Part shown: in pieces, positions 34,325-53,300 of the stretch | How positions within the stretch are numbered: the first letter of the stretch is position 1 | How the letters are laid out: every line of letters starts with the position of its first letter | From: an uncultured bacterium | Lineage (GTDB): Bacteria; Acidobacteriota; Thermoanaerobaculia; Multivoradales; JAHZIX01 | Reading direction: 5' to 3' | Assembly: GCA_965368975.1 (NCBI GenBank) | Contig: CBDUPA010000021.1 | Location: forward strand, 50,352 to 114,351 | Length of the DNA: 64,000 nt | Notes under the pieces: model-generated | What the model was told of the DNA's origin: nothing | Database searches by the model: none | The model's input: the letters and a program-made list of their open reading frames with translations, nothing else | Translations under genes and position numbers: made by a program

Positions 34325-35656
34325 TCACTTCTGCTGCACACGGCTGAGCGCGCCAGAGAGCTCTTCGATCAGGGTTGCGGACACCTGCTCCATGTGGGCC
34401 GCCTTCTGGAACACGATGAGCGCGGCCATGGCCTCGCGGTGCAATTCCAGTGACTGGAAGATGGGCAGGGTCTCTTCGGCCAGCTGACGCATGGCGGTGA
34501 CGCGGCCCTGGCGAGCGTAGATGCTGGCCAGGTCGAGCGACACCCAGGCGGCGTCGTAGCCGATTTCGTGGTCGATGAACGCACGCCGGACATCCACCAG
34601 GGCGGATTCGGCATCGTCGATCTGACCAGCGGCGATGGAAATGCGACCTTCCAGCCAGCGCAGGCGGACCAGGTCCAGCTCGTTGGCGAACTGACGGTGC
34701 AGGTCGCGGGTCTCTTCGAGCAGGTTCAGCGCTTCCTGCTGCTGCCCCTTCTCGCTCAGGTAGAAGCACAGGTTGTGGGTCGCCACCAGCATCAGGCGCG
34801 GTTCCTGCTCGGGCTCGATCCAGGCCAGGCCCCTGCGCAGCAGACGAACCGCCTCCTCGGTGTGGTCCTGCTTGCCGGCCAGCAGGCCCTGTCCGATCAG
34901 CACGCGACCTTCCAGGTGGCGATCCTCCAGCTTGCGGTACAGAAGGGCAGCACGCTGCAGGCAATGGGTCGCGTCCTTGAGCCGGTGGTTGTCGCGGAAC
35001 AGCGACGCCTTCAGCTCGAAGATACGGCCCTTCTCCAGTGGATCACCGCTCCCCTTCTGGATCAGCGATTCGGCCAGGTCGAACGCCTTCTCGGCACCGT
35101 GCAGGTCCGAGCGGATACGGCGGGCATTGCCCAGCATTGCCCAGGCGCGCGCCTTGATGTCGTACGCCAGGGGTGCCGAGCAGGTCTCGACATCCAGCTC
35201 ATAGGCCATGCTCACCGCCACCTCGGCCAGCTGTAGCGCTCGGTGCGGATCCTGCACGCACGCGTGCCAGGAGCGCTCCAGAATCAGCTCGCACAGCGAC
35301 CAGCTGCGGAAGCGGGAGTCGTTGCACACCATCAGGCGCTGCTGCTCCAGCGGCCGCCGGGTCAGCTCTTCGAACAGGTGCTCGGCGGTTTCCGTGTCGG
35401 CGCTCAGCTGGCTTTCCCAATCGAAAGCACGGCTGGTCATGCGCATCCAGGACGCCGTGTACAGGTGCTCGAAATCTTCGTCCAGACCTGCCATGTCAGT
35501 CAGATCAGACGTCATTTCGGTGCCTTCGGTCGCTTCGTACCAGGCAGTGTCGTCGTCACGCCTCAGCGCGGCACGCACCATCGAGCAAGCCTCTTCCGGC
35601 GTTAGATCGAAATCCAGTTTCCAGAGTTGCGACCGATCCAAACTGCTCGAAGTCAT
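34325..35656 (-). CDS. TPR-repeat protein, paralogue of 44130..45374
   Basis: Helical repeats: ARAWAMLGNARRI, ATHNLCFYL, LRWLEGRI, YDAAWVSLDLA. GGGAGG RBS. Confidence 0.8.
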   Translation of the reverse strand: MTSSSLDRSQLWKLDFDLTPEEACSMVRAALRRDDDTAWYEATEGTEMTSDLTDMAGLDEDFEHLYTASWMRMTSRAFDWESQLSADTETAEHLFEELTRRPLEQQRLMVCNDSRFRSWSLCELILERSWHACVQDPHRALQLAEVAVSMAYELDVETCSAPLAYDIKARAWAMLGNARRIRSDLHGAEKAFDLAESLIQKGSGDPLEKGRIFELKASLFRDNHRLKDATHCLQRAALLYRKLEDRHLEGRVLIGQGLLAGKQDHTEEAVRLLRRGLAWIEPEQEPRLMLVATHNLCFYLSEKGQQQEALNLLEETRDLHRQFANELDLVRLRWLEGRISIAAGQIDDAESALVDVRRAFIDHEIGYDAAWVSLDLASIYARQGRVTAMRQLAEETLPIFQSLELHREAMAALIVFQKAAHMEQVSATLIEELSGALSRVQQK

Positions 35657-35980
35657 CACCAGACCTCCCCCCGTGTTTATCGGACATCTCATACGGGGCT
35701 TCGATCGAGATGAACCGGGCTGGTTTTCCGAAATGGAAAACCTTCAACCTAATATCACATGCTTATCAAAGAAGTCTCACGACTCTGGGCCGCTGACTGT
35801 CCTCTTTCTTGGGGCTCTTGTCGCCCTTCGCCATGATCAGCTCGCTCTAGGCTCTGAGATTCAGGTGAGCTGAGATCAGCCGCACTAGATCGAGCTGTGG
35901 CAATTATCCATTTGGGTCAAGTGTCGGGCCGGCGTCGAGACAACCTTCGATCACCGCGTGACGCTGAGCACAAACACTGA

Positions 35981-41752: not shown

Positions 41753-42700
41753 TCACCCCCGGTGGCGCAGCAACCAGTGCAGCACCTGCGCCTCCGCCGA
41801 CCCTGGCGCCGCGCCCAGCCCCAGGTCGAGGTGGCGCGGAAAGCCGAGATGGCCACCGCGGTCCGTCCAGCACACCTCCAGGTGTCTGCTGCCGCGCTCC
41901 AGGTACGGCTTCACCGTCTCTGCCAGCACCATCGGGTCCGCCTCGGACCCCACATACAGCGTCGGCACCCGCAACCGTTCCAGGTGCGGTGCCACGCTGA
42001 CCTGGCGGTAATAGTCCTCAGCTCCTTCGAAGCCATGGCGTGGTGCCACGATGAGGTCGTCCCAGTCCCACAGCGACCTCACCTGCTCCGCCTGCTCCAT
42101 CGGCACCGGCACCGGCCCCCTCGCCGCCACCTCACGGTAGATGTTGCGCAGCCCGATCAGCAAGAAGCGCTGGTAGGCCGCCATGTACCACTGCTTGTAG
42201 GTCTCTGCCGAGAGCTCCAGGTCGACCGGCGACGCCAGGGTCGCCACCGCCCGCACCCGCGGATCGTGGGACTCGACGGCCCAGCGCAGTACCACGTGGC
42301 CACCCAAGGAGTAGCCGAAGAAGTAGATGTCCTCGTACACCGCCAGCTGCGGGCAAGCCAGGGGGGCATCGAGATCGGCGATCAGCCCGGCGTGGTAGAA
42401 GTCCTCCCCCAGCCGGTCGGCCCCGCGCAGGTTGAGCAGCAAGCACGCTAGGCCCGCCTCGCGCGCCGCCCATACCGCCCGGGCCAGATAAGGGCTGCGC
42501 ACCGACCCGCCGAGCCCGTGGATTACCACGAACAGCCCGGTCGCATCCTGCACCTCGAACAACCTCCCCGTCAGCCGCACCATCCCTTGCCGCGCGTCCG
42601 GCACGACCGTCGACCACTCCGTCCACGGCGGCAGCGGCGGCGGCCACAGGCGGCCGTGGAGGCGAGGCAAGATGGTCCAGAGGTGTCCGCTGACTGCCAT
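41753..42700 (-). CDS. YheT-family alpha/beta hydrolase
   Basis: HGLGGS, FYHAG, GYSLGG, DPMV, GGHLGF. Confidence 0.88.
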   Translation of the reverse strand: MAVSGHLWTILPRLHGRLWPPPLPPWTEWSTVVPDARQGMVRLTGRLFEVQDATGLFVVIHGLGGSVRSPYLARAVWAAREAGLACLLLNLRGADRLGEDFYHAGLIADLDAPLACPQLAVYEDIYFFGYSLGGHVVLRWAVESHDPRVRAVATLASPVDLELSAETYKQWYMAAYQRFLLIGLRNIYREVAARGPVPVPMEQAEQVRSLWDWDDLIVAPRHGFEGAEDYYRQVSVAPHLERLRVPTLYVGSEADPMVLAETVKPYLERGSRHLEVCWTDRGGHLGFPRHLDLGLGAAPGSAEAQVLHWLLRHRG

Positions 42701-42777
42701 TGAAGGGTCCGTCTCGAGTCGTAGGGCGGGAAGACTTGTGCGGCGGGAAGAATAGCAGGGCAAGGCGCACACGGAAA

Positions 42778-42807
42778 CAGGCCGCCACACCGAAGCGCGG
42801 CGGCCTG
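42778..42807 (-). terminator. Hairpin 3' of precursor peptide 1
   Basis: CAGGCCGCC...GGCGGCCTG followed by TTTCC on the minus strand. Duplicated at 43238. Confidence 0.6.
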
Positions 42808-42840
42808 CATCCTTTCAGAGGGAAGCGAGGAAGGAAGATC

Positions 42841-43044
42841 TCACCAGGTCGGCGTGAAGGTGGTCGGGCAGCCGACCGACTCGTTGTGCACGCAGTCCGG
42901 GGAAATGGTGGTCACAACGCACTTGTAGCCTTCGGTGAAGTCGATTGGAATGGCACCACCGACCTGGTGCATTGTATCCTCCTCAAGAGCCAGCAGGGTG
43001 TCCTTGCGAAGCCGCAACCTTCGAATACTGATCCGCTTCTTCAT
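42841..43044 (-). CDS. RiPP-like precursor peptide 1 (double-glycine leader, Cys/Thr-rich core)
   Basis: MKKRISIRRLRLRKDTLLALEEDTMHQVGG|AIPIDFTEGYKCVVTTISPDCVHNESVGCPTTFTPTW. GGAG RBS. Confidence 0.8.
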   Translation of the reverse strand: MKKRISIRRLRLRKDTLLALEEDTMHQVGGAIPIDFTEGYKCVVTTISPDCVHNESVGCPTTFTPTW

Positions 43045-43228
43045 GATGTACTCCAGTTCTCATGGGTATCAGGAACCATCGTCCCGAGAATCTTGCCAAA
43101 CTCGGCCTTGTCTTAAGTAAGAACTCTAACAGACATATCATAGTAATTCCCGAACTCTCCATCAGAATTCAGTAAGAAGGCTAGCGCAGTTCATCCGGAC
43201 AGCAAATCGCCAGCTTGCATGAACACGA

Positions 43229-43277
43229 AGCAAGCTACAGGCCGCCACACCGAAGCGCGGCGGCCTGTAGCTTGCAT
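43229..43277 (-). terminator. Extended hairpin 3' of precursor peptide 2
   Basis: GCAAGCTACAGGCCGCC...GGCGGCCTGTAGCTTGC, 17-bp stem. Confidence 0.65.
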
Positions 43278-43306
43278 CCTCTCAAGGGAAGCGAGGAAGG
43301 AGGATT

Positions 43307-43525
43307 TCACCAGGTCGGCGTAAAGGTGGTCGGGCAGCCGACCGACTCGTTGTGCACGCAGTCCGGGGAAATGGTGGTCGCGATGCACACGGCGTCCTCG
43401 GTCCACTGGTCACAGATCGGATGGCCGCTGGTGCCGCCGTTGACACCCGCCATGCCGTTCTCGGTGATGGCCAGCAGGGTGTCCTTGCGCAGCTGTAGCT
43501 TCCGGGCGATGTTCCGCTTCTTCAT
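43307..43525 (-). CDS. RiPP-like precursor peptide 2
   Basis: MKKRNIARKLQLRKDTLLAITENGMAGVNGG|TSGHPICDQWTEDAVCIATTISPDCVHNESVGCPTTFTPTW. GGAG RBS; alternative ATG at 43531. Confidence 0.8.
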   Translation of the reverse strand: MKKRNIARKLQLRKDTLLAITENGMAGVNGGTSGHPICDQWTEDAVCIATTISPDCVHNESVGCPTTFTPTW

Positions 43526-43959
43526 GGTCATGTTCTCCAAGTAGCGATGGGAGTCGAGCTCCCGAATAGGGGGTTACCCTTGGGTGGGTAGTACGACTGA
43601 CTGGTACGGTTGGCGCAGTGGAAGGTTCTTTGGGATCAGATTTCTTTACATCGGGTAGAGCTGCGCGACAGGTCGTACCGATTCTCCTCGTCCTCGCACA
43701 TCCTAGGTGGAGCGGGGACCGCATCGCGCATGATGCCGAATGAGGGCGCCCCGCGGAAAGGAACCGTCGCATGAACAGGTACCTGTCGAACCGAGTGGCC
43801 CGTTGGGGGGCCGGTCCGTGGCTGGATCCAGATGGAGGCCGCCCAGGCAGTGGAGATCTCGGGCCGGGCCTTGGTTGGCTCCAATGGAGAATCACTGCGA
43901 AACGTCTAGACGTAGACTGAATGCGTGAACTCCGCCATCAATTAAGCGAGCCTCACCTC

Positions 43960-43999
43960 TAGTCCTGCAAAGACACGAGTAGTCCTGCAGAGACACTAG
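43960..43999. repeat. 20-bp direct repeat x2 upstream of the Zn-finger TPR gene
   Basis: TAGTCCTGCAAAGACACGAG / TAGTCCTGCAGAGACACTAG. Confidence 0.65.
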
Positions 44000-44129
44000 G
44001 ATCATCTCTCGCAGTAGTCGGTAGCGAGGCACAAGCCTCGCTACTGAATTTTTTAGCGTGGATGTCACGATTTCTCGTCTGCTCGCACTTTAGAGGCAAC
44101 CTAGACGAAAATCCAATCTTGGAGATACC

Positions 44130-45374
44130 ATGTACCATCTTCCTCGCGAGTTGTTCGAGGCTCATTTGGCAGGCGATATTTCCCCCAGAGAGCTTTCAAG
44201 ATTCCTGGCTGAACACCTGATAACCCTCTGCCCCTTGTGCGAAGCGGAGTTACGAGCGGTCCAGCGGAGTCTGGACAATCAAGATCATGGGCAACGAGGG
44301 GAGCCGAAGCCAAGTCCCGAGGATTGGCACCAAGCGCGCAAGTGGATGGAGGAGTTACAGCGGGATCCGATCTCGATCTGGGCGGGCAAGGTTGCCAGAG
44401 CGAGGAAGCGTTTTCGCGGCCCTGCATTCGCCGAACTCATGCTAGAGCAGGCCAGGTTATATCCTGAGAATGCCCTGGAAACTACAACCTGCGCACAGAT
44501 GGCCCTCCCCCGGCAAGGATTTGCCAGTACACGCATTGATGCTATGGCCTGCGCACTGCAGATGAACGCCTATCGCGTGCAGGGCAGCTACGACCGGGCA
44601 CAACAGTACCTGGATCTACTGCCAGCCCTCCTGAATGGAGTCACGAACCCGGCCTGCCAGGCCGAGGCCGCAAGCCTGATTGGCTCTCTCCTCATCGACC
44701 TACGTCATTTCAGCAAGGCGAAGCAGCATCTGAGCTACGCTGCAATTCTCTCCAAGCACATCCTGCGAGACAGTGAACTCAGCGCCAGGACGGCAATCAA
44801 GATATCTGGCATCCACTACTACCAGCGCCAGTGGGACCAGGCTCTGAACGCTCTTCTGCCGGCTTTCCAAGATGTGCAGGAAGAAGAAACACCCCGCATT
44901 TACTTCATCTTGCGCTACAACCTGGCGATGCTCTTCTGCGCAATGAACCATCCAGACGCTGCGCTGGAGCTTCTCCCCGAGGTACAAGCAGGCTTGCGGC
45001 AGCATGGCACCACCATCGACCAGAGGTCACTGCAGTGGCTGGAAGGTCGGATTCACGGGGGTCTGAGCGATCATCATCGCGCTTACCGACTGCTGACAGA
45101 TCTCCGGGATCAATACCTGCAAGAAGGGCAACATTTCTGTGCGGCGATCGTCGCCTGCGACATTTGCTGCCTGCATCTGGATCGAAATGAACTGGACGCC
45201 GCCGTGGAGATCTTGCAACCAGCCCTGTCGACCATGTGCCGCCACTCGCTGCACGAGGAAAGCGAACAGGTTGTGCGCGGCTTGCAGAACGCCCTGCTTC
45301 GAGGTGTATTGACGCTCACGACACTGAAGGCTGCCCTGCCCCACCTGGAACAGGCAGCTCGCGTCGTTCGCTAG
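44130..45374 (+). CDS. TPR protein with an N-terminal anti-sigma-like Zn finger
   Basis: H3...EHLITLCPLC (Hx4CxxC), then helical repeats (RYNLAMLF, LQWLEGRI, CAAIVACDIC). GGAG RBS. Confidence 0.75.
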   Translation: MYHLPRELFEAHLAGDISPRELSRFLAEHLITLCPLCEAELRAVQRSLDNQDHGQRGEPKPSPEDWHQARKWMEELQRDPISIWAGKVARARKRFRGPAFAELMLEQARLYPENALETTTCAQMALPRQGFASTRIDAMACALQMNAYRVQGSYDRAQQYLDLLPALLNGVTNPACQAEAASLIGSLLIDLRHFSKAKQHLSYAAILSKHILRDSELSARTAIKISGIHYYQRQWDQALNALLPAFQDVQEEETPRIYFILRYNLAMLFCAMNHPDAALELLPEVQAGLRQHGTTIDQRSLQWLEGRIHGGLSDHHRAYRLLTDLRDQYLQEGQHFCAAIVACDICCLHLDRNELDAAVEILQPALSTMCRHSLHEESEQVVRGLQNALLRGVLTLTTLKAALPHLEQAARVVR

Positions 45375-45637
45375 TCTTGGCCCAGATCCGCGACGCATCT
45401 AGCATTCCGTATCACGGTGACGGAGTCAGGTCCCCGATGGCTTGGTGCAACCTTGTTGGACGGAATCACAGATCCTTGATCGGGTAGGAACCCGGCATGG
45501 TTCGGAGACGAAGGGTGATTCTGGAGCCGGGGCTGGGGGTGGGGGATGGGGCTGGGGGGTGGCGATTGGGTGGTTTGTTGTTGGGGCGGATGGGATAGGC
45601 GCCGCGGGCGTGTCGACTTGGGATGCGAGGGTTGTGC

Positions 45638-45721
45638 TACCTCGGCGCGCTCAAACGGCTCGCGGTGCCCCTGCAACTGCTCCAGATCGCGGGCATCCTC
45701 ATGGCTGTAACTAACAAAGAC
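45638..45721 (-). pseudogene. Short TIR-domain N-terminal remnant
   Basis: VFVSYSHEDARDLEQLQGHREPFER matches the bacterial TIR start pattern VFISYSHxDxxxxxxLxxHLxPLxR. Nothing TIR-like follows. Confidence 0.5.
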
Positions 45722-45840
45722 CTCGGCCCAGCCACGGCACCCTCCTGCCAAGAGGCATTCAAACATTCACACAGATGTAGGCGGGAGCGATTGTATCGGA
45801 CGGGAAGCGGTGGACCAACTCTGACCCGCTCCCAGATACA

Positions 45841-45870
45841 CGAAAGCCCGGCAGAAACTGCCGGGCTTCG
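45841..45870 (-). terminator. Hairpin terminator of the M28 peptidase gene
   Basis: CGAAAGCCCGGCAG-AAA-CTGCCGGGCTTCG, 25 nt after the stop codon. Confidence 0.7.
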
Positions 45871-45895
45871 ATGTCTCGCGGGAGAGGCAGAAAAC

Positions 45896-48733
45896 CTACA
45901 TCCGCGACGGCTGCCCCAGCGTGACCTCCATCTCGACGCGCTCGCCATCGCGGACCACCACGGCCTTGGCCTTGGTGCCCGGCTCCGCGCGGCGCAGGAC
46001 GAACATCATGTCGTAGAGGTTCTTGATCTGCGTGCCGCCGAGTTCGACCAGGCGATCACCGCGTTGCATGCCGGCTTCGTCTGCAGGGCCGCCGGGGCGG
46101 ACGCCGGCGAAGAGGACGCCGGGCTCGTCGCTCTCGGAGTAGTCCGGGATGGAACCAAGCGAGGCGCCGGAGGAGCGGGTGTCACCGCGCGGTACGCGGG
46201 GCGGGGCACTACGGTAGGTGAGGAGTTCGTCGCGCGCGGCCAGGGTGCCGGAGAGGTCGGCGATGACGGCGGCGATCTGGGCGGCGCCGGAGGCGTTGAT
46301 GTGTTCGAGGTCGTCGGACGGACGGTGGTAGTCCTCATGGGTGCCGCTGAAGAAGTGCAGGACGGGAATACCGGCGGCGTAGAAGGGGGTCTGGTCGGAG
46401 CGGCCGTAGCCGGTGCCGCCGACGTCGCAGCGGACGCCGCGCGCGGTACAGATCGGGGCGACCAGGTCGCTCCACTCTTCGGCCGACTCACCACCCAGGA
46501 CGCTGACGACGTTGTTCTCCATGCGACCGACCATGTCGAGGTTGATCATGGCGACCAGGTTGTCGAGCTCGACACCGCCGGTGGGCTCTTTGCTGAAGTG
46601 CGTCGAGCCGAGCAGGCCGAGTTCTTCGCCGGCGAAGGCAACGAAGTAGACATCGCGCGGTAGCTCATCTTGACGCGCCATGAGATGACGCGCGATCTCG
46701 AGCAGGGCGGCGGTGCCGGAGGCGTTGTCGTCGGCACCGTTGTGAACTTCTTCGACGCCCGGGGCCAGCGAGCCTTCACCGCCGAGGCCGAGGTGGTCGT
46801 AGTGGGCGCCGATCAGGACCGCACCGGGCTTGCGGTCGACGGCCAGCGACGGCAGGCGACCGACGACGTTGTGCGCGGTGGAGTGGCGAACCTTGAGGTC
46901 GAGCTCGATGCTGGCGCTGGCGGTGCTACCGAAGAGGCCGGCACCGGCTTCACGCTTCAGGTAGAGCACCGGCATGTCGGCGGTGCCCTTGGCGTCGACA
47001 CGGCGGCGCGGAAAGGTGGCCTCTTCAGGCATCTCTTCGCCTTCGGCGAGCAGCGGAGCGTCGACGACGATCATGCCGGCGGCGCCCTTCTCGCGTGCGT
47101 TGAAGGCCTTGTAGCGCAGGTCGCTGTAACGACGCTGGTTCTCGGTGTCGTCGAAGGGTGCGGCTGTTGGCGCGAAGCGGCGCACCAGGACGATCTTCCC
47201 TGTGACGTCGAGACCTTCGTAGTCATCGACCTCCAGTTCGGGTGCGCTGATGCCATAGCCGACGTCGACCAGCTCACCCTCGACCTGACCGGTGCCAGAG
47301 AAAGCGGCGATCTGGTAGACGGAGGTCTCGATCTCGGTGCCATCGATGACCAGCGACTGCTGGAGCACGTCGACATCGGTCGGGATCTGGAAACGCTGCA
47401 GGAAGCCTTGCTCACCGGCCGGACGCAGGCCGACCCTCTGGAACTGGCGGCCCAGCCAGTCGGCCGAAGCGCGAAGGCCTTCGGTCTCGACGCCACGGCC
47501 CTGGCGCGCGTCGCTGGCCAGCCAGGCGATGTCGTCGTAGAGACGGTCGGCACCGGTCTCGAGCACCGGCCTGTTGGCGCGATCGAGCCAGCGGGCGAGG
47601 TAGATGTCCGTCTCGCCCGGCTTGCCCTGGTTACGGTTGGAGGCGAAGACGAGGTCGAGACCATCGTTGGGCGAGAACAGCGGGAACCCGTCGAAGCCCG
47701 GAGCGTAGGTGATGCGCTGTAGGTTGGTGCCGTTGAGATCGATCGCCCACAGGTCGAATTCGCGCTCGTCGTTGCCATAGTTGCTGGAGAAGATGATGCG
47801 GTCACCGGAGGGATAGAAGGACGGTGCGAAGGAAGCCGCCGCCAGGTAGGTGACCTGACGCGCATGCGTGCCGTCGGCGTTGGCGACCCAGATCTCCAGC
47901 TCGCCGGGGCGAATCAGCCCTTCCTTCAGCAACCGCTGGTAGTCCTGGCGCGAGGCGTCGTCGAAGAAGCGCGAGGCACGCCAGACGATCTGCGAGCAGT
48001 CGGGCGAGAAGAAGGCACCGCCGTCGTAGCCCAGGGTGTCGGTGAGCCGCTGCACGTTGCTGCCGTCGGCATCCATGCGATAGAGGTCGAGGTCGCCGTC
48101 GCGGGTCGAGGTGAAGACGACGGAACCGTCGATCGGGCACACCGTCGCCTCGGCGTCGTAGGCCTTGTTCTTGGTCAGGCGCACCACGTCGCTGCCGTCC
48201 GGCTTGGCGCTGTAGATCTCGTAGCTGTCGTAGATCGCCCAGACATAACCCTGGCTGTGATCCGGCGCCGGCGGGCACTTGCGGCTCTTGTCGTGGGTCG
48301 AGGCGTAGTAGATGCGCTCGCCTTCCGGGTAGCTGAAGTAGCCGCAGGTGGTACGGCCTTCGCCGGTCGACACCAGCGTCGCTTGCCCTGCCCGCAGCGA
48401 CGACATGCGGAAGATCTGGTCACACTCGTAGCCGGGGCGGGTGGATTGGAAGATGAGGTAGCGAGCGTCAGGGGACCAGTAGGCCTCGGCGTTCTCCCCG
48501 CCATAGGTCATCTGACGCACCTGGGAGAGGTGCACCTCTCGCGGATCTCGCAGCCGCCCGGACGCTTCGAACGCGACACGTGCGGTCTCTTCATCGATCT
48601 CCGACGGGTTGGCCAGCGGTGCGGCCTCGATCAGCGAGTCGAGATAGAGAGCCGACGGGTACGGCACGGTGGCCAAGAGGCCGACGGAAAGGGAGGCGAA
48701 GGTGAGGATCCGGAACAAGTGGCGCGACTGCAT
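45896..48733 (-). CDS. Secreted fusion of TolB-like PD40 propeller, PA domain, M28 peptidase and PDZ
   Basis: GGENAEAYWSPD, GYDGGAFFSPD repeats, DVTGKIVLV, GAHYDHLG, NGADDNASG, GEELGLLGS, NLDMVGR, DYHRPSD, PDZ GGPADEAGMQRGD. Confidence 0.92.
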   Translation of the reverse strand: MQSRHLFRILTFASLSVGLLATVPYPSALYLDSLIEAAPLANPSEIDEETARVAFEASGRLRDPREVHLSQVRQMTYGGENAEAYWSPDARYLIFQSTRPGYECDQIFRMSSLRAGQATLVSTGEGRTTCGYFSYPEGERIYYASTHDKSRKCPPAPDHSQGYVWAIYDSYEIYSAKPDGSDVVRLTKNKAYDAEATVCPIDGSVVFTSTRDGDLDLYRMDADGSNVQRLTDTLGYDGGAFFSPDCSQIVWRASRFFDDASRQDYQRLLKEGLIRPGELEIWVANADGTHARQVTYLAAASFAPSFYPSGDRIIFSSNYGNDEREFDLWAIDLNGTNLQRITYAPGFDGFPLFSPNDGLDLVFASNRNQGKPGETDIYLARWLDRANRPVLETGADRLYDDIAWLASDARQGRGVETEGLRASADWLGRQFQRVGLRPAGEQGFLQRFQIPTDVDVLQQSLVIDGTEIETSVYQIAAFSGTGQVEGELVDVGYGISAPELEVDDYEGLDVTGKIVLVRRFAPTAAPFDDTENQRRYSDLRYKAFNAREKGAAGMIVVDAPLLAEGEEMPEEATFPRRRVDAKGTADMPVLYLKREAGAGLFGSTASASIELDLKVRHSTAHNVVGRLPSLAVDRKPGAVLIGAHYDHLGLGGEGSLAPGVEEVHNGADDNASGTAALLEIARHLMARQDELPRDVYFVAFAGEELGLLGSTHFSKEPTGGVELDNLVAMINLDMVGRMENNVVSVLGGESAEEWSDLVAPICTARGVRCDVGGTGYGRSDQTPFYAAGIPVLHFFSGTHEDYHRPSDDLEHINASGAAQIAAVIADLSGTLAARDELLTYRSAPPRVPRGDTRSSGASLGSIPDYSESDEPGVLFAGVRPGGPADEAGMQRGDRLVELGGTQIKNLYDMMFVLRRAEPGTKAKAVVVRDGERVEMEVTLGQPSRM

Positions 48734-48908: not shown

Positions 48909-50087
48909 ATGAGCAAAGGGCTGATTCGCGTGCTCGTCCTCCTGGCTGTGGTAGCAGCGGCCTGGTGGCTGCGGTCCACGTGGTTGCAGCCACGGCCGGT
49001 GACCGTGCAGGTGGTGACGGTGACCCCCGGAGCCGTGGAGGCGATCGTGACGAATTCACGTGCTGGCACAGTCAAGGCCCGGCAGCGCGCACGCCTGTCC
49101 CCCGAGGTCGGGGGACGGGTGGTCCACTTGCCCTATCGGGAGGGCGCCCAGGTTGCTGCCGGTGAGGTCGTGCTGCGGCTGGACGATGCCCTACCGCGCG
49201 CACGGCTCGACCTGGCACGCAGCGACCTGGCGACGGCGGTAGCGCAGCGCGACGGTGCCTGCCTGGAGAACCGGCGCGCCGAGCGTGAGGCGGTGCGCAT
49301 CCGTGCCCTGGCGGCGGACGGCATCGTCTCGACCGACGCGCTCGACGCCATCGACACCAAGGTCGAGAGCACGCTCGCCGTGTGTACCGCCTCGGAAGCC
49401 GCAGTGCGGCGGGCGCGCGACGCGGTAGCGCTACAGCAGACGGAGGTCCAGCGCTTCGAGCTGCGTGCGCCCTTCGCGGGCATCGTGGCCGAGCTGTCGA
49501 TCGAGATCGGCGAGTGGACGACGCCCTCGCCGCCCGCAATGCCAGTGCCGGCGGTGATCGACATTCTGGACCCAGCGTCGATCTACATCAGCGCACCAAT
49601 GGACGAGGTCGACTCGGCCCGCATCCATCCCGGACAACCCGTGCGGGTGAGCGTCGACTCACACCGAGGCGAGACCTTCGAGGGCACCGTCGAGCGAGTG
49701 GCCCCCTACGTGCTGGACGTCGAAGAGCAGAACCGGACGGTCGAGATCGAGGTCGCGCTGCGAGATCGGGACCTCGCCGCGACGCTGCTGCCCGGCACCT
49801 CGGCCGACGTCGAAGTCATCCTGGAGTCCCGACCGGACGTGCTGCGGCTGCCAACGTCGGCGGTGCAGGGAGGACGTCAGGTGCTGGTGTGGGTTGCCGC
49901 GGACGATGGAACGGACAGAGACGGCGACCTCGGCCGCTTGGAGGAACGCGCGGTGACCACCGGCCTGCGCAACTGGGAGTGGGTCGAGATCACCAGCGGC
50001 GTGACGGCTGGCGAGCGGGTGGTGGCGGTGATCGATGGTCCCGAGATCGTCGCGGGCGTGCCGGCCCTGGCACACGAGACCCCATGA
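48909..50087 (+). CDS. Efflux periplasmic adaptor (MacA-like MFP)
   Basis: N-terminal anchor, LSPEVGGRV, helical hairpin, LRAPFAGIV, TGLRNWEWVEITSG. Confidence 0.9.
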   Translation: MSKGLIRVLVLLAVVAAAWWLRSTWLQPRPVTVQVVTVTPGAVEAIVTNSRAGTVKARQRARLSPEVGGRVVHLPYREGAQVAAGEVVLRLDDALPRARLDLARSDLATAVAQRDGACLENRRAEREAVRIRALAADGIVSTDALDAIDTKVESTLAVCTASEAAVRRARDAVALQQTEVQRFELRAPFAGIVAELSIEIGEWTTPSPPAMPVPAVIDILDPASIYISAPMDEVDSARIHPGQPVRVSVDSHRGETFEGTVERVAPYVLDVEEQNRTVEIEVALRDRDLAATLLPGTSADVEVILESRPDVLRLPTSAVQGGRQVLVWVAADDGTDRDGDLGRLEERAVTTGLRNWEWVEITSGVTAGERVVAVIDGPEIVAGVPALAHETP

Positions 50088-50131
50088 TCGAGCTGGAAGA
50101 TGATTGAGCTAGAGCATGATTGAGCTGGTAC
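50084..50131. repeat. 16-bp tandem triplication of the ABC ATPase start
   Basis: ATGATCGAGCTGGAAG / ATGATTGAGCTAGAGC / ATGATTGAGCTGGTAC. Confidence 0.75.
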
Positions 50132-50844
50132 ACCTGGCACGGACCTTCGAGGTCGGCGACGAGGAGGTGCACGCGCTGGTCGACGTCAGCGAGACGATCG
50201 CGGCCGGTGAGCACGTCGCGATCATGGGACCCTCTGGCTCCGGCAAGTCGACGCTGCTCAACCTGCTCGGCTGCCTCGACCGCCCCACTTCCGGTAGCTA
50301 TCGCCTCGACGGCCGCGAGGTGAGCCGGCTGAGCGAGTCCGAGTTGACCCGCGTGCGGCGGCACCAGATCGGCTTCGTCTTCCAGAGCTTCCACCTGGTG
50401 CCACGCTTGACGGCGCTCGAGAACGTCGAGCTGCCGCTGCTGTTCGCCGGCATCCGCCGCGGTGAACGGCGCAAGCGGGCCGAGCGTGCACTCGACGCCG
50501 TGGCACTCTCCGACCGGCTCGACCACCGCCCCGACCAGCTCTCCGGCGGCCAGCGTCAGCGCGTGGCCCTGGCGCGCGCCACCGTCACCCAGCCGCGCAT
50601 CCTGCTCGCCGACGAGCCCACCGGCAATCTGGACACCGCTTCCGGTGACCAGGTACTCACCCTGCTCATTGGACTGCAGCAACAAGGTTTGACACTGATC
50701 GTGGTCACCCACGATCCGCACGTCGCCCGGCGCGCCGATCGCGTGCTGGTGCTGGTCGACGGCCTGGTGGGCCGCCGCCTTGCCGGCCACGAGGTGCGGG
50801 ACACCCTGGTTGCGGATGCGGCGGGTACGCGGGAGCCGGCATGA
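50116..50844 (+). CDS. ABC ATP-binding protein (MacB/LolD type)
   Basis: GPSGSGKST, IGFVFQSF, LSGGQRQRV, LADEPTGNLD, VTHD. Confidence 0.94.
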   Translation: MIELVHLARTFEVGDEEVHALVDVSETIAAGEHVAIMGPSGSGKSTLLNLLGCLDRPTSGSYRLDGREVSRLSESELTRVRRHQIGFVFQSFHLVPRLTALENVELPLLFAGIRRGERRKRAERALDAVALSDRLDHRPDQLSGGQRQRVALARATVTQPRILLADEPTGNLDTASGDQVLTLLIGLQQQGLTLIVVTHDPHVARRADRVLVLVDGLVGRRLAGHEVRDTLVADAAGTREPA

Positions 50845-52046
50845 AGGTCTTCGAAGTCGTCGCCTTCGCCATGCGGGCCTTACGCGGTCATCGACTGCGC
50901 ACCGTCCTGAGCCTGCTCGGCATGGCGATCGGCATCGCCGCCGTGCTGGTCCTCACCGCGCTGGGCAACGGCGCGCGGCTCTACGTGACTGACCAGTTCA
51001 ACAGCATCGGTAGCAATCTGCTGATCCTGCTACCCGGCCGTGCCGAGACCACCGGCGGCACCATCCCCGGCACCTTGGGCGTGCCCAACGACCTGACGCT
51101 CGACGACGCCGAGACCTTGCGGCGCCATCTGCCGAGGGTCCGCCGCGTCGCCCCGATCACCCTCAACAGCGAGACCGTCGCCTTCCAGGAGCGGCGGCGA
51201 CAGGTGGCGGTGATCGGCGCCACGCGCGCCTACTTCACCATTCGTCAATTGGAGCTGGCTGCCGGTAGCTTCCTGCCCGACGAGGAGGCGCACCGGGGCG
51301 CGCCTCTGGTGGTGCTCGGCAGCGGCGTGGCCCGCGAACTGTTCGACGAACAGAACGCCATCGGCCAAGCTGTGCGCATCGGCGGCGGCCGCTACCGGGT
51401 GATCGGCGTCCTGGCGACCAGCGGCACCCAGCTGGGCGTCGACCTCGACGAGCTGGCGGTCATCCCCGTCGCGTCCGCCATGCGCCTGTTCAACCGCAGC
51501 TCCCTGTTCCGCGTGCTGCTGCAGACCTGGTCTTACAACGACCTCGAAAGCGCCCAAGCGCAGGCCACGGCACTGCTCGCCGAACGCCATGGCGAGGAAG
51601 ACTTCACCTGCATCCGTCAGGACTCCGTGGTCAGCGGCCTGGGCTCGATCCTCGGCACCTTGACCCTCGTCCTGGTGACCATCGCCGCTGTCTCCCTGAC
51701 CGTCGCTGGTATCGGCATCATGAACGTCATGCTGGTCTCGGTGTCCGAGCGGACGCGCGAAGTCGGTCTGCTCAAAGCTCTGGGCGCCGGCCGGCGTCAG
51801 ATTCTCGGCGTCTTTCTGGCGGAAGCCATCCTGCTCTCCGCCGCCGGTGGCCTGCTCGGCCTCGGCCTCGGTGCCGCCGCCATCCGCGTCAGCTTGCACC
51901 TCTTCCCCGCGCTCCCCGCCTCGCCGCCAACCTGGGCGATCGTCTCCGCGCTCGGCGTCTCGGTTCTCACCGGGGTTGCCTTCGGTGTCCTGCCCGCCCG
52001 CCGCGCCAGCGAACTCGACCCCATCACCGCCCTCGCTGGCCACTGA
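50841..52046 (+). CDS. ABC permease, MacB/FtsX type
   Basis: LGMAIGIAAV, GIGIMNVMLVSVSERTREVGLLKALGA, PARRASELDP. Confidence 0.93.
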   Translation: MKVFEVVAFAMRALRGHRLRTVLSLLGMAIGIAAVLVLTALGNGARLYVTDQFNSIGSNLLILLPGRAETTGGTIPGTLGVPNDLTLDDAETLRRHLPRVRRVAPITLNSETVAFQERRRQVAVIGATRAYFTIRQLELAAGSFLPDEEAHRGAPLVVLGSGVARELFDEQNAIGQAVRIGGGRYRVIGVLATSGTQLGVDLDELAVIPVASAMRLFNRSSLFRVLLQTWSYNDLESAQAQATALLAERHGEEDFTCIRQDSVVSGLGSILGTLTLVLVTIAAVSLTVAGIGIMNVMLVSVSERTREVGLLKALGAGRRQILGVFLAEAILLSAAGGLLGLGLGAAAIRVSLHLFPALPASPPTWAIVSALGVSVLTGVAFGVLPARRASELDPITALAGH

Positions 52047-52061
52047 CCAGGACACTTGCCC

Positions 52062-53300
52062 ATGTCCTCGCTCCTGCCCGACTCCCTCCTGCCTGAGCTG
52101 CTCCGCCTCGCGCTCCGCTCGCTCGCCGCCTACCGTCTGCGCTCGATCCTCAGCGTCCTCGGCATCGCCGTCGGCATCGCCTCGGTCATCCTCTTGACCT
52201 CCGTCGGCGAAGGCACGCGCCGCTACATCGAGAGCGAGTTCACCCAGTTCGGCACCCATATCGTCACCATCTTCCCCGGCAAGGCCGAGACCATCGGCAT
52301 CCCCGGCGTCCTCGGCGGCACGACGCACAAGCTCACGATCGCCGACGCCGAAGCCCTGGCTCACGTTCCCGGGGTCGTCAGCTCGATGCCGGTGGTCACC
52401 GGTACCGCCCGCGTCGAAGCCGTGGACCCCGAACTGGGCGGTCGTGGTCGTAGCGTCATGATCTACAGCGTCACGCCGACGATCCAGGACATGTGGGAGT
52501 TCTACCCCGTCCAAGGTGAGTTCTGGCCCGCCGGCGACCCCCGCCGGTCGCCCCCCCTGACCGTCCTGGGCCCGACGCTGAAGGAGGAACTCTTCGGCGA
52601 CACCAACGCCCTCGGCCAGTTCGTCCGCATCGGCGGCCGGCGCTTCCGCATCGTCGGCTTGATGGAACCCAAAGGTCAATTGTTGGGCCTGGACCTCGAC
52701 GATGGCGCCTACATCCCCGTCTCCTACGGCCTGCAACTCTTCAACCGCGACGAGCTCACCAACATCGACATCCGCTACGCCGAAGGTACCGACCCCGCCC
52801 GCGTAGAAGCCGCCGTCCGCGTCGCGATGATCGAACGTCACCGTGGCGAAGAAGACTTCTCCATCACCAGCCAGGCCGCCATGCTCGACGTCCTCGGCAA
52901 CGTCATCAACATCGTCACCGTCGCGGTGAGTGGAATCGCCGGGATCTCGCTGCTCGTCGGTGCTGTCGGAATTCTGACCATGATGTGGATCGCGGTCGGC
53001 GAAAGGACGTCCGAGATCGGCTTGTTGCGGGCCATCGGCGCGAGCCGGCGTCAAATCCGCTTGTTGTTTCTAGCGGAGGCCGGAGCTCTGGCGGCACTGG
53101 GGGGTGTGGTGGGCTTGGCAGTGGGGATGGGCCTGTGCGCGGTGCTGCGAGAATTGGTGCCGGCTCTGCCCGTGCACACACCGCTGATCTATGCCATCGC
53201 GGCCGTGGGCGTCAGTGGAGTGACGGGATTGCTGGCGGGAGTGTTGCCGGCGCGGAGAGCGTCGAGGTTGGATCCCGTCGAGGCGTTGCAGGCGGAGTGA
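52062..53300 (+). CDS. ABC permease, MacB/FtsX type (second)
   Basis: LGIAVGIASV, GILTMMWIAVGERTSEIGLLRAIGA, PARRASRLDPVEAL. Confidence 0.93.
   Translation: MSSLLPDSLLPELLRLALRSLAAYRLRSILSVLGIAVGIASVILLTSVGEGTRRYIESEFTQFGTHIVTIFPGKAETIGIPGVLGGTTHKLTIADAEALAHVPGVVSSMPVVTGTARVEAVDPELGGRGRSVMIYSVTPTIQDMWEFYPVQGEFWPAGDPRRSPPLTVLGPTLKEELFGDTNALGQFVRIGGRRFRIVGLMEPKGQLLGLDLDDGAYIPVSYGLQLFNRDELTNIDIRYAEGTDPARVEAAVRVAMIERHRGEEDFSITSQAAMLDVLGNVINIVTVAVSGIAGISLLVGAVGILTMMWIAVGERTSEIGLLRAIGASRRQIRLLFLAEAGALAALGGVVGLAVGMGLCAVLRELVPALPVHTPLIYAIAAVGVSGVTGLLAGVLPARRASRLDPVEALQAE

Follow-up and report, generated by a model that had tools for sequence, protein, structure and literature searches.

The 64-kb window that we analysed (G000:C21:50352-114351, G000 being the source genome and C21 its contig) contains a 3.1-kb island in which two precursor genes of the class I lanthipeptide type, pepA and pepB, are located next to a gene encoding a zinc-finger tetratricopeptide repeat (TPR) protein. 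On balance, we favour the explanation that this island holds two separate small-peptide systems side by side, namely the lanthipeptide precursors and a system composed of the TPR protein and a small protein with a DPxG motif. The precursor genes and the TPR gene are probably neighbours and not parts of one system. As judged from sequence comparisons with related genomes, the DPxG small protein and the zinc-finger TPR protein form a conserved, apparently undescribed gene pair in one class of the Acidobacteriota. The source genome comprises 7.1 Mb in 59 contigs, and its placement in the Acidobacteriota was judged by the taxa of its nearest protein clusters. The features central to the argument are the following (window coordinates).

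42791..45895, unstranded: inserted lineage-specific island, 3.1 kb, between a hydrolase and an M28 peptidase gene
42841..43044, minus strand: pepA, class I lanthipeptide-type precursor, 67 aa, NF038153 match
43307..43540, minus strand: pepB, paralogous precursor, 77 aa from TTG, NF038153 match
43771..43920, plus strand: candidate TPR-partner open reading frame (ORF), 49 aa, with GPWLDPDG, ending 210 nt before the TPR start
44130..45374, plus strand: zinc-finger TPR protein, 414 aa, with an N-terminal helical domain (residues 1-125) containing H3, H29, C34 and C37, followed by a TPR superhelix

The TPR gene lies head-to-head with pepB, with 589 bp between them. Its product begins with MYH...EHLITLCPLC and looks soluble from its hydropathy, the maximum Kyte-Doolittle mean of any 19-residue window being at most 1.14. 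No helix-turn-helix (HTH) or other DNA-binding domain was matched in Pfam or NCBIfam. The start of the protein and its lack of a transmembrane segment and of an HTH had already been noticed by a sequence-only reading of this DNA, and these observations hold. An exhaustive search returned 1,563 TPR-family representatives at E<=0.001, of which 306 reached E<=1e-10. The majority are 430-445 aa long and align over their whole length; a word-indexed search returned 7 proteins only. In an alignment of 50 of the best full-length homologues, chosen without regard to the motif (A1), the residues H29, C34, C37, N146, R149 and A157 were invariant and H3 was conserved in at least 90%. The motif therefore reads H-x25-H-x4-C-x2-C, with Hx4Cx2C spacing across the window protein and the 50 homologues. 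In a second alignment (A2), the rows were picked by the motif pattern, and the four ligands are invariant by construction. Pfam matches of the 50 A1 members were dominated by TPR-type families, and zf-HC2 was not among the 25 listed of the 69 families matched. The NsdA family TPR-like regulator (NF053720) was rejected as an assignment for the window protein, at 31.5 bits compared to a cut-off of 75.

The AlphaFold2 model of the TPR protein is all helical, with a predicted local distance difference test score (pLDDT) of 94.2 and a predicted TM-score (pTM) of 0.89. Foldseek matched this model to LGN/Pins, APC5 and Rap proteins (RapF, RapH, RapJ, pLS20 Rap and phage Rap proteins) at TM-scores of 0.44-0.55 and a probability of 1.00. 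The TPR profile also matches RapH, RapF and RapJ by sequence, in the TPR part only (RapH with E 6.6e-11 over about 100 residues), and this likeness to Rap proteins is generic TPR similarity. Modelled alone, the N-terminal 125 residues are predicted to form a seven-helix unit with the His2Cys2 motif (pLDDT 90.8). Nothing in the PDB was matched by this domain at a Foldseek E<=0.001 (RsiW reached E 4.1), and the best VIA-align Z score of 5.3, on residues 62-125, was not significant.

At the level of the order, 23 of 41 genomes including G000 contain TPR-family matches at E<=1e-10, with 1-14 matches each. The best match in genomes of the same order is only 32% identical, and we therefore recognise no orthologue of the window TPR gene in this order. 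In a sample of 201 genomes from the phylum, profile matches at E<=1e-25 were found in at least 8 genomes, a lower bound because only eight candidates per genome were scored, and all 8 belong to the class of G000. The window itself encodes a distant TPR paralogue at 34325-35692 (minus strand) of 455 aa with a TPR_12 match; it shares about 26% identity over the TPR part and has a different N-terminus without the His/Cys motif.

The evidence for a second gene in this system comes from 40 homologue loci in 18 related genomes, taken with 6 kb on each side where possible (496 kb). They derive from 44 listed matches that cover the N-terminus, four of which were left out because they are near contig ends. 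Many of these loci have a small same-strand ORF whose end is some 40-250 nt ahead of the TPR start. The encoded protein has a hydrophobic N-terminus resembling a signal peptide, a helix rich in Trp/Phe and between one and five [ILVMFA]-D-P-x-G motifs, and a DPxG motif often forms its final residues. The partner of the nearest homologue (L037) contains five GPFVDP(D/N)G repeats. By a strict motif test, DPxG was detected in 23 of the 40 windows upstream of TPR genes, compared to 21 of 1,744 windows chosen at random from these loci and two of 40 downstream windows. A relaxed test, which asked for DPxG together with a hydrophobic N-terminus in a protein of 40-180 aa, was positive upstream at 27/40 loci and in 2/1,911 control windows. 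Furthermore, G000 has five other zinc-type paralogues, and a small DPxG ORF accompanies four of them (those on C12, C22, C6 and C27, but not the one on C23). The idea that a TPR receptor is encoded beside its peptide, which the sequence-only reading had put forward, is thus supported, but with a different peptide: the partner is encoded by the same-strand upstream DPxG gene and not by a GG-leader gene.

The small DPxG proteins matched no Pfam or NCBIfam family, and relatives of one of them in public collections are unnamed or annotated as 'hypothetical protein'. A PD40 match on the five-repeat peptide was discarded, since it reflects the short xPDG-like repeat only. In one genome, the small proteins of a paralogue pair (L051/L059) are 89.9% identical, and eight of their ten differences fall into two DPxG regions. 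The corresponding TPR proteins are 81.3% identical, with 73 of the 81 differences in residues 169-323, six in residues 1-168 and two in residues 324-433. Whether diversifying selection or gene conversion of the remaining parts lies behind it, the motif and the central TPRs have been kept different in step, as a ligand and its pocket would be. In such a system, the central TPR groove would bind the partner protein by its DPxG end, or else a peptide cleaved from that protein, and the zinc-finger helical domain would relay binding to a further partner. The layout would resemble that of Rap/Phr. In the literature searched (listings and abstracts, and word searches of PMC10075063 and PMC7826278), neither a zinc-finger TPR/DPxG pair nor any RRNPP-like system of Acidobacteria was described.

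In the window, the partner would be represented only by the short, possibly decayed ORF 43771-43920 together with a terminator-like hairpin. The position, strand and motif of this ORF are those of the small genes upstream of 27 of the 40 homologues, and AAAGGAA is found 7 nt upstream of its ATG. It may be a decayed copy of the TPR partner gene. A second short ORF upstream, in frame with it and separated by a TGA, may be the N-terminal fragment of a precursor that is now broken. The region between pepB and the TPR gene contains these additional elements.

43618..43743, plus strand: short ORF with a short hydrophobic stretch, in frame with 43771-43920, TGA between
43960-43979 and 43980-43999, unstranded: 20-bp direct repeat in tandem (two copies, 90% identical), located past the small ORF and ahead of the hairpin
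44018..44053, plus strand: terminator-like hairpin (44018-44047; 13 pairs, 8 G-C), then ATTTTTT, in the gap between the small ORF and the TPR gene

The head-to-head arrangement of the peptide genes and the TPR gene, the spacing of about 600 bp and the 20-bp direct repeat were all found where the sequence-only reading had placed them. These 600 bp are not empty, however: they contain the 49-codon ORF and the terminator-like hairpin, which that reading had left unmentioned. No other copy of the 20-bp repeat unit was found in the 7.1-Mb genome at up to two mismatches, and we regard the tandem repeat as a candidate operator. A hairpin followed by a T-run separates the small gene from the TPR gene at 7 of the 26 loci examined, including L037, and the C12 locus shows the same arrangement. 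A sigma-70 promoter scan of 42600-45900 gave no sites. Among sequencing runs, the only one listed as sharing words with this DNA is a DNA metagenome (share 0.07), and none is from RNA.

The other half of the island is formed by the two precursor genes. Both peptides exceed the curated cut-off of 22 bits of NF038153 (lant_leader_L1a, class I lanthipeptide), pepA with 23.5 bits and pepB with 25.7 bits, which bears out their earlier assignment as a pair of GG-leader precursors of the type of peptides made on ribosomes and modified after translation (RiPPs). Pfam gave nothing meaningful for either. The true start of pepB is probably the MKKR at 43525. The leader motif LxLxKx5L is exact in pepA and has Ile at the last position in pepB, and in both peptides GG precedes the core. 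The pepA core of 37 aa contains 3 Cys and 9 Ser+Thr, the pepB core of 41 aa 4 Cys and 11 Ser+Thr, and the C-terminal 23 residues of the two are identical. At the DNA level, the two loci are linked by direct repeats of 118 nt (90% identity) and of 57 nt over the leaders, and each gene is followed by a copy of the same hairpin. pepA and pepB are therefore a duplication.

42777..42807, minus strand: hairpin 3' of pepA (repeat D3, 31 nt), 100% identical to the pepB copy
43230..43275, minus strand: terminator-like hairpin 3' of pepB, 20 pairs, 13 G-C, containing the D3 copy 43237-43267

An LxLxKx5L...GG leader has been described for class I LanAs of Bacteroidetes and linked to C39 proteases (Walker et al., PMC7268733). 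G000 contains 36 NF038153 matches at E<=1, which are scattered across many contigs and of which 16 exceed the cut-off, and the cores of its leader-matching peptides are diverse and Cys-rich. One precursor (C13:48021-48104) is located between two LanC genes and a 1,167-codon frame with a LanB match. All LanB and LanC matches are off contig C21 (on C13, C12, C9, C1, C18, C22, C41 and C11), and the three Peptidase_C39 matches of the genome, in ORFs of 762-812 aa, are also on other contigs. Since LanB, LanC and C39 genes are all encoded away from C21, and since prochlorosin precursors, which sit far from their LanM, are given as a precedent in PMC7268733, we infer that pepA and pepB may be orphan precursors modified in trans by LanB/LanC enzymes from other contigs. 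The two peptides would be dehydrated and cyclised by these remotely encoded enzymes, and an ABC exporter with a C39 peptidase would then cleave the leader after GG. Class I lanthipeptide-type precursors are present in G000 in large number and scattered over the genome, a combinatorial layout for which the prochlorosins of cyanobacteria are the best-known example.

At C13:186196-187686 and C1:561303-562869, a leader-like small ORF (weak tblastn match to pepA/pepB) has a LanC match directly downstream; because of these two loci, we count several candidate lanthipeptide clusters in G000 besides C13:45-52 kb. A related genome contains six tandem NF038153-matching genes (30-39.7 bits) within 1.4 kb (G007:C7:27577-28991), a tandem array that contrasts with the dispersed pattern of G000.

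The sequence-only reading had joined both halves of the island into one system, in which a cytoplasmic receptor binds a pepA- or pepB-derived peptide and controls a sigma factor of the extracytoplasmic function (ECF) type, and in which TPR homologues should repeatedly adjoin GG-leader peptides. A profile built from 27 GG-leaders of G000 gave only three junk matches (E 2.9-9.8) in the 496 kb around the 40 homologues, so that no TPR gene among these loci has a leader gene as a neighbour. In G000, the same profile gave 56 matches at E<=1. NF038153 matches at E<=0.05 were missing from six of ten related genomes (G015, G034, G006, G017, G002 and G036), each of which carries 3-14 TPR-family matches at E<=1e-10. 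In the other four genomes, each of the NF038153 matches listed was either separated from the TPR genes by over 100 kb or located on a different contig. Likewise, a Sigma70 domain was found in none of the 79 ORFs near the homologues (up to 1 kb upstream or up to 300 nt downstream); the ORFs adjoining the TPR homologues are heterogeneous housekeeping genes. Sigma70_r2 gave 32 matches in G000, none of them on C21. With leaders at 0/40 loci and Sigma70 in 0/79 ORFs, a link of the TPR protein to a GG-leader peptide or to an ECF sigma factor is unsupported for the family. Neither the expected adjacency nor the role of a pepA/pepB peptide as TPR ligand was borne out, and the same holds for the proposed sigma factor connection. 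For annotation, this means that a head-to-head position alone does not tie a RiPP precursor to a TPR gene.

Several points weigh against the interpretation as two separate systems. Because the 40 loci were drawn from related genomes and some of them are paralogues, they are not independent. Thirteen of them fail the relaxed DPxG test, whose signal-peptide call is an in-house hydrophobicity rule and not a dedicated predictor. The co-diversification of small protein and TPR protein rests on one pair, as the differences were evenly spread in four other paralogue pairs. A secreted partner and a cytoplasmic receptor would also require re-import of the peptide or binding before export. In the window, ORF 43771-43920 has no signal peptide and no word-sharing homologue; its G+C content at third codon positions (GC3) is only 0.58, an in-frame TGA lies upstream, and it may be a chance ORF or a remnant. 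On the side of the lanthipeptides, no LanB, LanC or C39 gene is found within the 64-kb window, and the absence of LanB and LanC counts here as well. Finally, two of the six zinc-type TPR genes of G000 are located near a GG-leader gene in the same divergent layout, an association to which we return below.

Among the alternatives, the one that fares best sees in the TPR part a transferred remnant under decay, with a broken partner gene and no current function, ORF 43771-43920 being untranslated. This reading draws on the composition of the island, whose surroundings are as follows.

41753-42790, minus strand: alpha/beta hydrolase gene, left flank
45371..45766, minus strand: 131-codon ORF with a TIR-like VFVSYSHED start, overlapping the TPR stop codon
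45896-49075, minus strand: M28/PD40/PDZ peptidase gene, right flank

The island is an insertion between the two flanking genes, which are spaced by 35-163 nt in four of five genomes of the same family. In the fifth (G003) they are 34.6 kb apart, for which reason the site appears insertion-prone; this much larger insertion at the equivalent site spans G003:C43:152060-190355. As the sequence-only reading had claimed, the island has a lower G+C content, with 0.53-0.62 over about 42.8-45.6 kb compared to 0.64-0.72 in the flanks. Its parts differ in composition, since the GC3 of the TPR gene (0.66) is below that of the flanking genes (0.84-0.87) and of pepB (0.91); the value for pepA is 0.76. The low G+C content, the low GC3 of the TPR gene and the TGA between the hydrophobic ORF and the motif ORF would all fit a decaying remnant, as would the lack of a TPR orthologue closer than 32% identity. 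The 131-codon ORF, which gave no Pfam or NCBIfam match and may itself be a gene remnant, points in the same direction. But the TPR frame is intact across 414 codons, all six columns that are invariant in the 50 A1 members are kept in the window protein, and its model is predicted with a pLDDT of 94. We therefore consider decay of the whole TPR part unlikely, although it deserves more weight than the remaining alternatives. As a side observation on the 131-codon ORF, the gene downstream of the C12 TPR paralogue (G000:C12:228680-229207) encodes VFLSYSRED, with further SYSRD/SYSHD-type genes around it; the two ORFs share a match of 15 residues only (pairwise E 0.011).

The association within G000 leads to a second alternative, according to which a DPxG/TPR pair was recruited twice in this genome and regulates the transcription of the neighbouring precursors from the divergent region, comparable to the control of bacteriocin genes through peptide quorum sensing in Firmicutes. 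Two of the six zinc-type TPR genes (on C21 and C12) are located within 1 kb of an NF038153 match, and both loci share the order precursor gene, divergent small ORF, TPR gene. When genes were placed at random, this proximity had P values of 0.002, 0.005 and 0.02 for distances of 1, 2 and 5 kb, respectively, values that include the discovery locus C21, without which one of five remains. Because of this proximity, we keep a local functional link between TPR gene and precursors as a minor rival. The three-gene order at two loci and the unique 20-bp tandem repeat inside the control region would both agree with such a regulation. However, the TPR protein has no DNA-binding domain match, the repeat is positioned downstream of the small ORF and has no counterpart at C12, and the statistic counts the discovery locus. 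Moreover, both gene families may simply pile up in variable islands, and the GC3 values of pepA and pepB (0.76-0.91) differ from that of the TPR gene (0.66). Taken together, regulation of the precursors by the TPR pair appears rather improbable to us.

The weakest alternative retains the core of the sequence-only reading: the TPR protein would be a cytoplasmic anti-sigma factor of the zinc-binding anti-sigma (ZAS) type that senses (modified) pepA/pepB and releases an ECF sigma factor. The ligands of ChrR are His, His, Cys and Cys. The TPR protein possesses a conserved four-ligand His/Cys site placed as in ZAS domains, and in this respect the reported ZAS-like motif is real, but the spacing is Hx4Cx2C, one residue longer than the Hx3Cx2C it was compared with. 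Neither zf-HC2 nor anti-sigma models matched the whole protein or residues 1-125 at E<=0.1. Two paralogues from related genomes, L054:1387-2763 (minus strand) and L068:8912-10282 (plus strand), do have the canonical Hx3Cx2C; both match the ChrR anti-sigma model below its threshold (E 2e-5 and 8e-5), and zf-HC2 is matched as well by one of the two (E 0.013), which speaks for the anti-sigma explanation. In some other paralogues the H immediately precedes CxxC, so that the spacing before CxxC varies across the wider family between Hx3, Hx4 and direct-H forms. The N-terminal domain is ZAS-like at best and not a demonstrated member of this group.

The gene arrangement gives a similarly mixed picture. 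The divergent layout with a common control region of 230-590 bp would suit a peptide sensor, and so would the repetition at C12 of the order GG-leader gene, divergent small ORF and TPR gene (two of six; P 0.002-0.02). In addition, one distant TPR-only paralogue of G000 (C2:253810-254982) is located about 0.5 kb downstream, on the same strand, of a Sigma70_r2 match (C2:253128-253322, in a 204-aa frame). This position is typical of an anti-sigma gene, and it is the only such case among the G000 paralogues. In the text of the ECF reclassification (PMC7826278), TPRs are mentioned only as an extension of ECF42 and in the FecR-like anti-sigma factor of ECF267. On the other side, C22, the closest paralogue of C12 by its N-terminal sequence, has no leader gene nearby, so the adjacency of TPR and leader genes was not inherited with the gene. 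The control regions of the window and of C12 show no DNA similarity, with only chance-level words in common, and the association falls to one of five when the discovery locus is removed. Together with the absence of leader genes from all 40 homologue loci and from six TPR-carrying genomes, of Sigma70 from all 79 adjacent ORFs and from C21, and of any zf-HC2 or anti-sigma model match to the window protein with its Hx4Cx2C spacing, this makes an anti-sigma role very unlikely.

Two further observations concern the surroundings. A G-rich imperfect tandem repeat with 19-nt units (84% identical) lies at 45529-45560, non-coding, in the gap between the TPR and M28 peptidase genes. Beyond the M28 peptidase gene, 48909-53300 (plus strand) encodes an HlyD-type adaptor, an ABC ATPase and two MacB/FtsX permeases; nothing ties these genes to pepA and pepB.

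A more far-reaching version of the preferred two-system interpretation would be that a class of Acidobacteriota possesses multiple paralogous cytoplasmic zinc-finger TPR receptors (3 to 14 or more matches in each genome with the family), each paired with its own exported propeptide from which DPxG-ended peptides are released, for cell-cell signalling, and that in G000 such pairs were placed twice beside lanthipeptide precursors, perhaps controlling them. We offer this tentatively and consider it an outside chance. Acidobacteriota abound in soils, yet next to nothing is known of how their cells communicate, and a conserved gene pair with receptor/propeptide logic in this phylum would be new, if true. 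With many diverging copies per genome, the DPxG/TPR pair would be a concrete candidate for signalling.

The two halves of the island resemble different known systems. pepA and pepB share with the NF038153 class I precursors (Bacteroidetes type, pinensin group) the leader model, the LxLxKx5L motif, the GG, a core rich in Cys, Ser and Thr, and a C39 peptidase in the genome; unlike them, they stand alone in a 3.1-kb island of an Acidobacteriota genome and are known from their genes alone. The prochlorosins provide the closest parallel to the genome-wide pattern, with dozens of precursors that have a common leader and diverse cores and are mostly distant from the lanthionine synthetase genes. They are class II (LanM) products of cyanobacteria with Nif11-type leaders, in contrast to the class I leader and the LanB/LanC enzymes found here.

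On the side of the TPR protein, ZAS domains (ChrR, RsrA, RsiW; zf-HC2) likewise have an H...CxxC where two helices meet, preceded by an N-terminal His some 25 residues earlier, and their three-helix start is similar to the N-terminus of the TPR protein as modelled. The window protein differs from them by its Hx4Cx2C spacing, by the lack of a model match and by having no sigma factor gene nearby. LGN/Pins, which match the TPR body best in both structure and profile searches, are peptide-binding TPR superhelices as well, but they are eukaryotic scaffold proteins and the likeness is limited to the repeat fold.

A further comparison is with the RRNPP systems of Firmicutes (Rap/Phr, NprR, PlcR/PapR, PrgX). 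Peptide systems with TPR receptors are framed as a trait of Firmicutes and of their mobile elements in the RRNPP_detector paper (PMC10075063), and the word 'Acidobacteria' is not present in its text. The TPR protein differs from RRNPP receptors in lacking sequence membership and an HTH and in having an N-terminal His2Cys2 site: in place of the three-helix bundle or HTH of RRNPP proteins we found a seven-helix N-terminal unit and no HTH match. Moreover, the DPxG small gene lies upstream rather than downstream, its motif occurs up to five times, and the phylum is Gram-negative. A neighbouring gene for a putatively exported propeptide was detected at 27/40 loci of the family, compared to 2/1,911 controls, although the candidate ORF in the window is without a signal peptide. 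Like the RRNPP systems, the pair combines a soluble TPR protein that is about 400 aa long and helical in its N-terminal domain with an adjoining small gene, whose product has a putative export signal and a C-terminal motif as the candidate active part, and it occurs in many paralogues per genome. If the pair does serve cell-cell signalling, Rap/Phr logic would extend to a Gram-negative phylum, and a zinc-finger domain would take the place of the HTH as output.

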